Part shown: piece by piece, positions 12,376-60,232 of the stretch
Layout of the letters: every line of letters starts with the position of its first letter
How positions within the stretch are numbered: the first letter of the stretch is position 1
Made by a program: the position numbers and the translations under genes
The notes under the pieces: model-generated
What the model saw: only the letters and a program-made list of their open reading frames with translations
Databases searched by the model: none
What the model was told of the DNA's origin: nothing
DNA from: Escherichia coli
GTDB taxonomy: Bacteria > Pseudomonadota > Gammaproteobacteria > Enterobacterales > Enterobacteriaceae
Direction: 5' to 3' (one strand)
Assembly: GCF_044647545.1 (NCBI RefSeq)
Contig: NZ_CP172818.1
DNA: 64,000 nucleotides

Positions 12376-13788
<1,413 letters not shown>

Positions 13789-13909
13789 GGTGTTCTGGAA
13801 AGCGCCTCGCATAATCTGAAGAAAACCAATGTAATACGCACATCTGGATTGTTACCGGCCGATGCAGATCCCGGCGTATAGCTGATTCCATTATTCAACA
13901 CTGCGCCAT

Positions 13910-31911: not shown

Positions 31912-31937
31912 GCCCCCGGTTCGGGGGCTTTTTTTTT
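31912..31937. terminator. Intrinsic terminator between convergent yhcN and yhcO
   Basis: gcccccg-gtt-cgggggc hairpin followed by T9. Confidence 0.7.
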
Positions 31938-38121: not shown

Positions 38122-38151
38122 TTAGTTACTGCAGTAGAGGTTTTTACGGCT

Positions 38152-49285: not shown

Positions 49286-50260
49286 ATGCAGGCGTTACTT
49301 TTAGAACAGCAGGACGGCAAAACTCTCGTATCGGTACAGACACTGGACGAAAGTCGCCTGCCGGAGGGCGATGTCACGGTTGATGTTCACTGGTCGAGCC
49401 TGAACTACAAAGATGCGCTGGCAATTACCGGTAAGGGAAAAATCATCCGTAATTTTCCGATGATTCCTGGGATCGATTTTGCCGGAACTGTACGCACCAG
49501 CGAAGATCCGCGTTTTCATGCCGGTCAGGACGTATTACTCACTGGCTGGGGCGTTGGTGAAAACCACTGGGGTGGGCTGGCGGAACAGGCGCGAGTGAAA
49601 GGTGACTGGCTGGTTGCCATGCCACAAGGGCTGGACGCGCGTAAAGCAATGATTATCGGTACTGCCGGTTTTACCGCCATGCTGTGTGTGATGGCGCTGG
49701 AAGATGCCGGTGTTCGCCCGCAGGATGGGGAGATTGTCGTGACGGGTGCCAGTGGTGGCGTCGGCAGTACCGCCGTGGCGCTGCTGCATAAGTTGGGTTA
49801 TCAGGTCGTTGCCGTTTCCGGTCGCGAAAGTACCCATGAATATCTGAAAAGTTTAGGTGCCAGCCGTATTCTCCCTCGCGATGAGTTTGCCGAATCCCGT
49901 CCTCTGGAAAAACAAGTCTGGGCAGGGGCAATTGACACCGTTGGCGACAAAGTGCTGGCAAAAGTGCTGGCGCAAATGAATTACGGCGGCTGCGTGGCGG
50001 CCTGTGGTCTGGCGGGTGGTTTTACTCTGCCAACCACGGTCATGCCATTTATTCTGCGTAATGTCCGTTTACAGGGGGTAGATTCAGTGATGACGCCACC
50101 AGCACGCCGCGCACAAGCCTGGCAGCGACTGGTCGCCGATTTACCGGAATCATTCTATACCCAGGCGGCAAAAGAGATATCTCTGGCAGATGCACCGAAG
50201 TTTGCCGAGGCCATCATTAATAACCAGATCCAGGGTCGCACGCTGGTGAAGGTTAACTAA
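49286..50260 (+). CDS. acuI: Acrylyl-CoA reductase AcuI (YhdH), MDR/zinc-ADH superfamily
   Basis: 324-aa ORF MQALLLEQQDGKTLVSVQTLDESRLPEGDVTVDVHWSSLNYKDALAITGKGKIIRNFPMIPGIDFAG... Confidence 0.93.
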   Translation: MQALLLEQQDGKTLVSVQTLDESRLPEGDVTVDVHWSSLNYKDALAITGKGKIIRNFPMIPGIDFAGTVRTSEDPRFHAGQDVLLTGWGVGENHWGGLAEQARVKGDWLVAMPQGLDARKAMIIGTAGFTAMLCVMALEDAGVRPQDGEIVVTGASGGVGSTAVALLHKLGYQVVAVSGRESTHEYLKSLGASRILPRDEFAESRPLEKQVWAGAIDTVGDKVLAKVLAQMNYGGCVAACGLAGGFTLPTTVMPFILRNVRLQGVDSVMTPPARRAQAWQRLVADLPESFYTQAAKEISLADAPKFAEAIINNQIQGRTLVKVN

Positions 50261-50562
50261 CCATTTAGCAAGGATTAATAAGAGAGGGAACTCATTTTGA
50301 AATCATTATTCAATCGGTTAACGGGAAAAGCGGTTAGCCGGACAGCTTTCGTCGAACATCTTGGTCATGAAGTTGTACAACATCATCCAAACTGGAAAGT
50401 CATGATTTCGACTGACCATAAATTGATGCGCATTGATACTCACCAAACGGTAAATCACTCTTGATGATCTACAAATAACAAAAATAATATAAAAAAAACA
50501 TTTAAAAAAAAAAACGCCTCGCTGGATTTTGCCTGGGAAGACTTAACGATGAGTTAATTATC

Positions 50563-50735
50563 TTGTTTGCTGAAGATGGTAGCGAAACCATGCGCTATCT
50601 GATGCGCTACGAAGTGACCATTGACCGCGAACAAGCCATCAATAATTTGAAGCAAATATTGCCGGAAGTTTCGGCTGAAATCGTTGATACAGGCGCAAAC
50701 GCTGGAAAATTTGCCGTTATCTCCCCAGGGGTCTT
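50563..50735 (+). other. Candidate protein-coding start (ORF N-terminus) that runs into the low-complexity tract; product unknown
   Basis: Track ORF 50563..50988; first ~58 codons (…MRYLMRYEVTIDREQAINNLKQILPEVSAEIVDTGANAGKFAVISPG) have E. coli-like codon usage, then the frame enters homopolymer sequence; not recognised. Confidence 0.25.
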
Positions 50736-50736
50736 T

Positions 50737-51120
50737 AGACCCCCCTCTTGTTCCTTTTACCTTTTCGCCAACCCCCCCCCAAATTTTTATCCCCCCCCCC
50801 AAAAAAAATTTTTTTTCCCCACAAAAAAAACCACCCAAAACCCCACCCATAATAAAAAAAAAAAAAAAAAATTCCCCCCTGCAAGAACCACCCCTCCAAA
50901 AAAAAAAATTTATCCCCCCCAAACTCTCTTTTCCCCGGAAAAAACCCTTCATCAACCCACCCCCCCAGATAAAAAAAATTGGGGATGATGGTAAAAATTC
51001 AAAAACACCAAACGCCTTTCCCCAAAAATTTTTTTTTTTTTTTAGCGAAAAAATCAAAAAACAAAAAAACGCACTGCCGCCTGACAAAACAGTTTACCTT
51101 CTGCAAAATGGGGGGAATAA
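50737..51120. other. Anomalous low-complexity tract: A/C/T homopolymer runs, almost no G; probable sequencing/assembly artefact
   Basis: Read directly: runs such as c9, a8, t8, a18, t14 interspersed over ~380 bp; strong strand asymmetry; unlike any surrounding sequence. Confidence 0.8.
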
Positions 51121-51232
51121 TCTGATTTTATTTGATTACAAATTAACCACTTAAACCTATTTCATACTGAGCATTATCAGTCGGTTGATTTTGCGTGCTT
51201 TAGCATTCACATCTATCCAGACGATGCAGTGA

Positions 51233-51400
51233 AAATTGGGCAATCCCCAGCAACCGCTGCGTAATGTCGTCTATCTTGTCGCGATCCTGGCATCCCTACA
51301 TTATTTGTGGTCTGTGAAGATTATCTCATTGCAGCCCCTCATCTTCGCAGGGCTGGCTTTACAGCTTTTCACCTTACGTTATAAGAAGTTCCGTCGATGA
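51233..51400 (+). pseudogene. Possible 3' remnant of an msrQ/yedZ-like heme-binding membrane protein gene (no start codon, <60 codons)
   Basis: Frame translation …[39 protein letters not shown] resembles the MsrQ (YedZ) C-terminus as I recall it (HYLWSVKII…LRYKK); not verified by alignment. Confidence 0.3.
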
Positions 51401-51804
51401 TGGCGCTAATTTCGTGAATTGTGCGGCTTGTTGCAAATTACACGGTGTTGAAGGTTATTTACATGTTAGCTGTTGATTATCTTCCCTGATAAGACCAGTA
51501 TTTAGCTGCCAATTGCTACGAAATCGTTATAATGTGCGACCTCGTCCTCCCTGACGCAGTTTTTGCGCTGCGGAAAAGGTGACATTGGCGCAACGAAGGT
51601 ATATTTTGTTTTTTGCCGGAGGATAGCAGCAGATCGCTGCACAATGTCCGTCAAGTCTAACATTGACACTCTGGGGCAAAATAGACCGGCGTCCCGGCCT
51701 GCTGGAATTTATCGCTATGCATACAGCTGTCGGGGCATACGCTTTACAGACGGCGGTGAAACGCCTGTCACAATCACACTAAACAAAGAGTACGGAACCC
51801 ACTC

Positions 51805-52275
51805 ATGGATATTCGTAAGATTAAAAAACTGATCGAGCTGGTTGAAGAATCAGGCATCTCCGAACTGGAAATTTCTGAAGGCGAAGAGTCAGTACGCATT
51901 AGCCGTGCAGCTCCTGCCGCAAGTTTCCCTGTGATGCAACAAGCTTACGCTGCACCAATGATGCAGCAGCCAGCTCAATCTAACGCAGCCGCTCCGGCGA
52001 CCGTTCCTTCAATGGAAGCGCCAGCAGCAGCGGAAATCAGTGGTCACATCGTACGTTCCCCGATGGTTGGTACTTTCTACCGCACCCCAAGCCCGGACGC
52101 AAAAGCGTTCATCGAAGTGGGTCAGAAAGTCAACGTGGGCGATACCCTGTGCATCGTTGAAGCCATGAAAATGATGAACCAGATCGAAGCAGACAAATCC
52201 GGTACTGTGAAAGCAATTCTGGTCGAAAGTGGACAACCGGTAGAATTTGACGAGCCGCTGGTCGTCATCGAGTAA
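51805..52275 (+). CDS. accB: Biotin carboxyl carrier protein AccB
   Basis: 156-aa [37 protein letters not shown]… with biotinylation motif EAMKMMN. Confidence 0.97.
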
Positions 52276-52285
52276 CGAGGCGAAC

Positions 52286-53635
52286 ATGCTGGATAAAATT
52301 GTTATTGCCAACCGCGGCGAGATTGCATTGCGTATTCTTCGTGCCTGTAAAGAACTGGGCATCAAGACTGTCGCTGTGCACTCCAGCGCGGATCGCGATC
52401 TAAAACACGTATTACTGGCAGATGAAACGGTCTGTATCGGCCCTGCTCCGTCAGTAAAAAGTTATCTGAACATCCCGGCAATCATCAGCGCCGCTGAAAT
52501 CACCGGCGCAGTAGCAATCCATCCGGGCTACGGCTTCCTCTCCGAGAACGCCAACTTTGCCGAGCAGGTTGAGCGCTCCGGCTTTATCTTCATTGGCCCG
52601 AAAGCAGAAACCATTCGCCTGATGGGCGACAAAGTATCCGCAATCGCGGCGATGAAAAAAGCGGGCGTTCCTTGCGTACCGGGTTCTGACGGCCCGCTGG
52701 GCGACGATATGGATAAAAACCGCGCCATTGCTAAACGCATTGGTTATCCGGTAATTATCAAAGCCTCCGGCGGCGGCGGCGGTCGCGGTATGCGCGTAGT
52801 GCGCGGCGACGCTGAACTGGCACAATCCATCTCCATGACCCGTGCGGAAGCGAAAGCTGCTTTCAGCAACGATATGGTTTACATGGAGAAATACCTGGAA
52901 AATCCTCGCCACGTCGAGATTCAGGTACTGGCTGACGGTCAGGGCAACGCTATCTATCTGGCGGAACGTGACTGCTCCATGCAGCGCCGCCACCAGAAAG
53001 TGGTCGAAGAAGCACCAGCACCGGGCATTACCCCGGAACTGCGTCGCTACATCGGCGAACGTTGCGCTAAAGCATGTGTTGATATCGGCTATCGCGGTGC
53101 AGGTACTTTCGAGTTCCTGTTCGAAAATGGCGAGTTCTATTTCATCGAAATGAACACCCGTATTCAGGTAGAACACCCGGTTACTGAAATGATCACCGGC
53201 GTTGACCTGATCAAAGAACAGCTGCGTATCGCTGCCGGTCAACCGCTGTCGATCAAGCAAGAAGAAGTTCACGTTCGCGGCCATGCGGTAGAGTGCCGTA
53301 TCAACGCCGAAGATCCGAACACCTTCCTGCCAAGTCCGGGCAAAATCACCCGTTTCCATGCACCTGGCGGTTTTGGCGTGCGTTGGGAGTCTCATATCTA
53401 CGCGGGCTACACCGTACCGCCGTACTATGACTCAATGATCGGTAAGCTGATTTGCTACGGTGAAAACCGTGACGTGGCGATTGCCCGCATGAAGAATGCG
53501 CTGCAGGAACTGATCATCGACGGTATCAAAACCAACGTTGATCTGCAGATCCGCATCATGAATGACGAGAACTTCCAGCATGGTGGCACTAACATCCACT
53601 ATCTGGAGAAAAAACTCGGTCTTCAGGAAAAATAA
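52286..53635 (+). CDS. accC: Biotin carboxylase AccC
   Basis: ORF 52247..53635; likely start [33 protein letters not shown] (449 aa). Confidence 0.97.
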
Positions 53636-53651
53636 GACTGCAAAAGCGCTC

Positions 53652-53678
53652 AAAAGGCCGGATTTTCCGGCCTTTTTT
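53652..53678 (+). terminator. Intrinsic terminator after accC
   Basis: aaaaggccgg-atttt-ccggcc hairpin followed by T6. Confidence 0.7.
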
Positions 53679-53743
53679 ATTACTGGGGATTGATATCTAC
53701 ATAAGGTACAATCCTCGTTCTCTTCACCCATCAGGGACAAAAA

Positions 53744-53986
53744 ATGGACACTCGTTTTGTTCAGGCCCATAAAGAGGCGCGCTGGGCGCTGGGGCTGACC
53801 CTTTTGTATCTGGCGGTATGGTTAGTAGCCGCTTACTTACCTGGCGTTACCCCCGGTTTTACCGGCTTTCCACGCTGGTTTGAGATGGCTTGCATCCTGA
53901 CGCCGCTGCTGTTTATTGGACTGTGCTGGGCGATGGTGAAATTTATCTATCGCGATATCCCGCTGGAGGATGACGATGCAGCTTGA
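53744..53986 (+). CDS. yhdT: Small membrane protein YhdT (DUF997)
   Basis: 80-aa ORF with two TM segments; overlaps the panF start. Confidence 0.88.
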   Translation: MDTRFVQAHKEARWALGLTLLYLAVWLVAAYLPGVTPGFTGFPRWFEMACILTPLLFIGLCWAMVKFIYRDIPLEDDDAA

Positions 53987-59834: not shown

Positions 59835-60232
59835 GATTAATTATTCAGGAAATAAATATATTCGACACAGAGTGAGAAAATAGCGAAGGTTAATCTATCA
59901 CCTAATGTGTATTTATACGAGAGGCTAATATTGAGTTGCTATAAATCGTCAAATAAATAACGTTTATTATTTACCTAAAACACATTCACTCTATCAATAT
60001 ATATTTCAATTTACGAGGATTTGATTCTACCTCTTTCAACCCGCGTCAAAATAAAACAGTAGAATATTAATCTTTTTTTGTGTTTATGTGCCTTGAGACG
60101 CTAGTATTCATAACTATTCCTTACATCGACGAATGATAATTTGTAGGATAGCGAACTGTATTTTTCTTTCTGCGAGTTAACGCGTTGCCTTTTTGGGTAA
60201 ATAACGCGCTTTTGGTTTTTTGAGGAATAGTA

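Follow-up and report, generated by a model that had tools for sequence, protein, structure and literature searches.

The window analyzed here is a single stretch of 64,000 nucleotides (64 kb) of Escherichia coli DNA, and the locus in question lies on it between two intact genes of the plus strand. The left neighbor, acuI (acrylyl-CoA reductase; 49286..50260), is an open reading frame (ORF) that carries this name in the reference annotation and whose exact protein occurs on thousands of contigs; the right neighbor, accB (51805..52275), is called from an ORF together with the reference annotation. Between the two, as the first-pass annotation had correctly reported, lies a tract rich in homopolymer runs and depleted of G. 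By its sequence matches the window is assigned to the ST648 lineage of E. coli. Over the 64 kb, this locus excluded, it differs from strain ST648 by about six single nucleotide polymorphisms (SNPs) and a few small indels, and its first 13.8 kb match several ST648-type genomes bar one 1-nt gap.

We compared positions 50100-51900 of the window with 5,426 complete E. coli genomes by megablast. The flanks of this query match in 5,425 of the 5,426, and none of these genomes covers at least 80% of it; the alignment to a closed E. coli reference that had been proposed earlier, run here against the whole collection, reproduced the tract in no complete genome. In the best-matching records this stretch is 1,989 nt long, compared with 1,801 nt in the window, and their acuI-accB gap holds an intact coding sequence (CDS) of 831 nt, the 276-residue product of which (WP_000838294.1) is named 'DUF1444 domain-containing protein' or 'hypothetical protein' in the records. 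The Pfam model DUF1444 (PF07285) matches this product over its full length but weakly (i-Evalue 0.025, residues 29-270), and the NCBIfam model PRK13668 gives 20.7 bits against a cut-off of 221; we refer to the gene as DUF1444-like. The full locus is present in 667 of the 5,426 genomes at no less than 97.7% identity. The remaining complete genomes retain just the first 143 nt or so of the gene as an unannotated remnant, and most E. coli genomes (the K-12, BL21 and O157 types) carry 101 unrelated nucleotides where an 856-nt segment (L001:841-1696, in the coordinates of our reference sequence) stands in the others. Between accB and the DUF1444-like gene of some relatives, RefSeq also annotates a fragment of a cytochrome b/MsrQ (YedZ)-like pseudogene (about 51100-51400; L002:1687-1989 in a second reference sequence), a region that is intact in the window and identical to the relatives.

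Read from left to right on the plus strand, the locus alternates between genuine and corrupted sequence. As far as 50439 the window follows the reference without a difference, and the 5' part of the DUF1444-like gene (50297..50439; codons 1-48, with a TTG start) is 100% identical to L001:698-840 and translates to reference residues 1-48; the 55-residue ORF that begins at 50297 is the true amino terminus minus Gly49. An onset zone follows (50440..50470), still readable, in which the difference lists against the reference record the loss of GGG at 50440, of GG at 50452, and of a G and a C at 50469-50470; the independent run ERR10498640 (Logan) has the reference bases. Beyond it lies a first stretch of junk (50471..50512, no strand assigned), where alignments place 42 nt (32 A, 7 T, 3 C and no G) against 177 nt of true sequence (L001:878-1054, approximately codons 61-119). 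The middle of the gene (50513..50731, plus strand, approximately codons 120-193) is again genuine, with 98.6% identity over 220 columns, a match at the protein level, and three errors: deletion of a T at 50543 and two isolated errors at G, G>T at 50710 and G>C at 50725. The main junk stretch (50732..51069, no strand assigned) has 338 nt for 384 nt of the reference (L001:1275-1658), which comprise the stop and some 84 codons before it (the final 254 nt of the CDS) together with 130 nt downstream; its assignment draws on colinearity, on its error spectrum, on a blur model described below, and on an exact 25-mer from the tract that found no match in either genome_contigs or metagenome_contigs. 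From 51070 onward, 2,566 nt run at 100% identity to relatives (51070-53635 is identical to CFSAN061771 and ST648 genomes), and the first 51 of these, 51070..51120 (plus strand, intergenic, including a G6 run), are genuine sequence that had been counted into the tract. The interval of 50737-51120 proposed in the first-pass annotation did contain the tract, but its limits need revision: the true limits are 50732-51069, its right end was 51 nt too long, and the second, smaller corrupted stretch (G-run deletions from 50440 and A-rich junk at 50471-50512, that is, the damage in 50440-50512) had been missed. Nowhere else in the 64-kb window did we find comparable damage.

The composition of the tract is far beyond chance, and the observation is real. 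In windows of 200 nt, runs of at least 5 nt hold 39-46% of the bases of the tract, compared with a mean of 2.0% (standard deviation 2.7%, maximum 17%) over the remaining 64 kb; G makes up 6-7%, as against a lowest value of 9.5% elsewhere, and the GC skew falls to -0.68. The window has 13 homopolymers that reach at least 8 nt, and twelve of them fall within 50491-51043, the sole outlier being a T9 at 31929. That the tract is homopolymer-rich, G-depleted and unlike the rest of the window is thus borne out.

The main stretch proves to be a colinear but degraded version of the true sequence, and it occurs only in this assembly. Aligned globally with the template (the 384 nt that it replaces), the junk scores 63, compared with -32.6 ± 7.9 for shuffles in which its runs were kept and their order permuted (z = 12.2), and with -31.9 ± 12.9 when 500 other pieces of the reference take the place of the template (z = 7.4); reversed or reverse-complemented, it scores -22 and -41, respectively, against the same template. 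The degradation follows a distinct error spectrum. Template bases are kept in the order A (81%), C (72%), T (57%) and G (22%), with 27% of template G deleted; the errors in the onset zone are G-specific as well. Of 107 wrong bases, 74 equal the preceding called base and 73 the following one, the mean run length is 2.77 in the junk and 1.34 in the template, and the alignment has 56 template bases deleted and 10 inserted. Colinearity is claimed for the main stretch only, because threading the 42 nt of the first junk stretch onto its 177-nt template is uninformative for so A-rich a string; length is not kept there (42 for 177 nt), and this first stretch probably also holds a misjoin or a collapse.

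These results bear directly on readings in which the tract is DNA of the organism. A composition so unlike the rest of the window might speak for a foreign insert, such as the remnant of a mobile element or other low-complexity DNA unrelated to the normal sequence; against this, the tract is strongly colinear with the orthologous sequence that it replaces, is shorter than that sequence, and has no match in any collection searched. Colinearity and net loss of length exclude a foreign insertion, and we give this reading practically no credence; that the alignment is a mere effect of composition is argued against by both controls, the shuffled run order and the other segments. The real simple-sequence insertion that had been entertained earlier finds no support in the same comparison, in which 384 nt are exchanged for 338 nt that track them position by position. 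An insertion of tandem repeats was likewise rejected: Tandem Repeats Finder (TRF) picks up the A18 and T15 runs and otherwise just three short, low-scoring arrays (32-48; two periods are listed for one array), and going from 384 to 338 nt adds nothing.

A second such reading holds that the tract is real DNA, produced by local hypermutation or by the exchange of the gene's 3' part for simple sequence, and it can appeal only to the fact that the sequence was deposited in an assembly and annotated. We consider it very unlikely. The main stretch, at 58.6% identity, departs from the true sequence in about 41% of the aligned columns when gaps are counted, and does so between flanks 100% identical to relatives, at a locus where natural variation is at most 2.3% across 667 genomes, and TRF finds no tandem array in it but homopolymers and three short low-scoring arrays. 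The changes themselves consist of smoothing toward neighboring bases, strand-specific loss of G and indels, and we know of no mutational process that combines these. Natural decay of the gene is excluded by the identity of the flanks with those of the relatives and by the same bound of 2.3% on variation within the segment. The variable regions of diversity-generating retroelements (DGRs) resemble the tract in being colinear with a template and in carrying many differences at one type of base. DGRs alter adenines only, however, and create neither indels nor homopolymers, whereas in the tract A survives best (81%) and G least (22%), with many indels (56 bases deleted, 10 inserted); DGR-like hypermutation was excluded on these grounds. 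An in vivo rewriting of the 3' part of the gene in one isolate, by some strand-specific, template-following process that leaves a smoothed and G-depleted copy (for example, extremely low-fidelity, slippage-prone repair synthesis over about 340 nt), is in our judgment extremely improbable.

We described the degradation with a minimal model of a blurred four-channel trace, in which true bases are rendered as Gaussian peaks, the channels are weighted separately, and evenly spaced calls are made by the strongest channel. The best fit has a sigma of about 2.2 bases and weights of 1 for A, 1 for C, 0.6 for G and 0.8 for T. The true sequence blurred in this way is 76% identical to the junk (score 184), compared with 58.6% (score 63) when unblurred. 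On held-out halves of the tract the model reaches 75% and 69%, compared with 62% and 56% for the raw template, and 300 other segments passed through the same model score 36 ± 19, none of them above 80. It places the A18, C10, A8/T8, A11 and T15 runs where they are observed. Blur alone reduces the number of G from 78 to 44 and gives 71.7% identity; the 18 G that are observed require a G weight of 0.45-0.6. The width of the blur is approximately constant along the tract (sigma 2.2-3.0). The homopolymer runs therefore stand for the base that dominates locally in the true sequence, and they reflect a loss of single-base resolution and neither mutation nor insertion.

We therefore read the tract, with a probability of about 95%, as an artefact of base calling or assembly, that is, as the garbled read-out of an ordinary gene. 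The earlier suggestion that low-quality read sequence had been built into the assembly gains support: the tract is a smeared, G-depleted copy, colinear with the 3' part of the true gene and the 130 nt that follow it. On this account two parts of the locus would have been covered only by data that lack single-base resolution; each call would report the dominant base over roughly two to three positions on either side, G giving the weakest signal, and the calls would be slightly fewer than the true bases (338 versus 384), by which real sequence would turn into alternating runs of A, C and T that are nearly free of G. The sequence replaced was almost certainly the one found in relatives from the ST648 lineage (L001:841-1658), and the isolate would carry their intact 831-nt DUF1444-like gene between acuI and accB. 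Those of these relatives that have identical flanks allow the true sequence, which had been given up as unknown, to be inferred with high confidence.

As to how such an artefact could arise, the damage sets in gradually at the left edge of each corrupted stretch, where G runs disappear first, and stops abruptly at the right edge; such a pattern suggests data from the plus strand that degrade from 5' to 3' and then hand over to good sequence. Our first choice would be the tails of dye-terminator (Sanger-type) reads bridging a gap. Unresolved, low-signal tails of this kind that stay untrimmed in the consensus show runs of the dominant base, loss of the weak channel, a nearly kept number of calls and directional decay. 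The tract shares each of these with them: broad overlapping peaks called at even spacing would give runs of whichever base dominates locally, the dye channel with the weakest signal goes first, the number of calls is roughly kept (338 versus 384), and degradation runs in one direction on one strand. The blur model reproduces all four likenesses. In other respects the tract is unlike such a tail. Clean sequence gives way to junk within about 25-30 nt, faster than the natural decay of one read, so that coverage boundaries must be invoked; two separate stretches are hit; the source contig, at 4.5 Mb, suggests a long-read assembly; and the first stretch, with 42 nt for 177, needs an additional collapse or misjoin. 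A simple read-tail route also does not account for the coincidence of the left boundary with the segment that K-12 lacks. Our second choice would be a failed long-read consensus beyond the repair of short reads. Short-read polishing fails where the consensus is too wrong for short reads to align, and the window resembles such a failure in having a single bad spot in an otherwise essentially perfect sequence, sharp boundaries and a long contig; typical errors in nanopore or PacBio consensus are single-base homopolymer indels, whereas the tract combines an error of about 40% with loss of G and smoothing. Flow-order noise of the kind expected from 454 or Ion Torrent was rejected, since by eye the order of runs follows no fixed nucleotide flow cycle. 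A search of the literature for comparable artefacts returned only general papers on assemblers and gap filling.

The window holds further differences from its relatives. At 13785-13792, one T is deleted, and some 70 nt that every close relative has are then missing, with 'GGT' in their place; the lost sequence comprises the final gltD codons ('AACTGGCTGGAAGTTTAA') and a downstream hairpin, and gltD as assembled would end six residues (MNWLEV) early. None of the complete genomes shares this junction, the best matches there being split in two and spanning 276 nt compared with 211, and the change at the end of gltD could reflect either another defect of the assembly or a true deletion. Nearby, in the intergenic region downstream of gltD, 13860-13869 shows a C/A difference and an insertion of 5 nt ('CAGAT') relative to ST648 and CFSAN061771. 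At 38141, mapped to the tldD-yhdP intergenic region, 'AT' is missing compared with ST648 (GAGGATTTTTT > GAGGTTTTT), and at 60073 the T5 of ST648 is a T7 in the window; these two indels could be real polymorphism or errors in homopolymer length. Finally, at 53636-53744 the window lacks the 8.7 kb accC-yhdT sugar-utilization island of ST648 and CFSAN061771 (which encodes an aldolase, an ABC transporter, kinases and an epimerase) and has a clean spacer of 109 nt instead. The best identity of this spacer is 93.9% among the 4,003 complete genomes without the island, and its 10 differences from K-12 cluster at 53691-53720. Its flanks match ST648, the left over 2,566 nt at 100% and the right over 10.3 kb with one SNP and one 2-nt indel.

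An artefact could also have arisen by another route, in which a reference-guided step supplied a backbone without the segment and the insertion was then voted from noisy long reads lying out of register. The damage starts at 50440, which is the exact left edge and first base of the segment L001:841-1696 missing from the K-12 and O157 types, and lies wholly inside that segment. The source contig is 4.50 Mb long, compared with 4.7-5.3 Mb for the listed chromosomes of the ST648 lineage, and the window is also without the 8.7 kb sugar island of the ST648 and CFSAN061771 genomes examined. A majority vote over misregistered reads would likewise smooth locally, and blur alone already explains much (71.7% identity, and 44 instead of 78 G). 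Other observations fit poorly with this route: the damage ends at 51069, which is 38 nt short of the segment boundary at 51107, and the 219 nt in the middle are nearly perfect; a growing loss of register would widen the blur with distance from the anchor, and sigma stays constant at 2.2-3.0 (register loss was rejected because the blur width does not grow along the tract); and a weak G weight is still required for the observed 18 G. K-12 as the backbone was rejected on the 10 differences in the accC-yhdT spacer, which is at most 93.9% identical to any complete genome, and we found no candidate backbone. We regard this route as a tentative and rather unlikely one.

Under the artefact reading, the proteins called across the tract can be sorted into true and spurious residues. 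Three ORFs listed in the first-pass annotation do cross the tract, and its view that the tract itself makes them spurious holds up. The ORF at 50563..50988 (plus strand, 141 residues; RefSeq WP_400165336.1, UniRef100 UPI0037DC4295) begins with about 55 true residues, which match residues 137-191 of the DUF1444-like reference protein, and continues as translated junk; its product is found on one contig only, of 4,499,902 bp. The frame of good codon usage that had been reported as cut off near 50735 proves to be the genuine middle of the DUF1444-like gene. The other two ORFs are made by the junk, and their exact products are absent from the protein collection: one at 50554..51087 on the minus strand, antisense to the gene (177 residues, poly-F/G/K), and one at 50684..51154 on the plus strand (156 residues, poly-P/K). 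Contig 722 of run ERR10498640 (Logan; L005), which clusters with the spurious ORF, was considered as a second instance of the artefact and rejected, being from a different strain with normal sequence and a few single-G undercalls. On that contig the DUF1444-like gene is broken up into three called ORFs by the undercalling of one G at each of three places within G runs, an ordinary pattern of homopolymer-length error that is unlike the junk of the window.

If the artefact reading is correct, the corruption wiped out a real gene call and placed at least one fake protein, WP_400165336.1 (UniRef100_UPI0037DC4295), in reference databases, and pan-genome or variant analyses would score it as the loss of a gene, the gain of a novel gene and a large indel. 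The test used here, which asks whether local-majority smoothing of the orthologue predicts an odd tract, works without reads; it can separate degraded read-outs from real low-complexity insertions when the raw data are missing, and it may be reusable elsewhere. The practical importance of the case is small and is a matter of database hygiene. For the biology of E. coli it would have none, the locus being that of an ordinary accessory gene, which about 12% of complete E. coli genomes carry.
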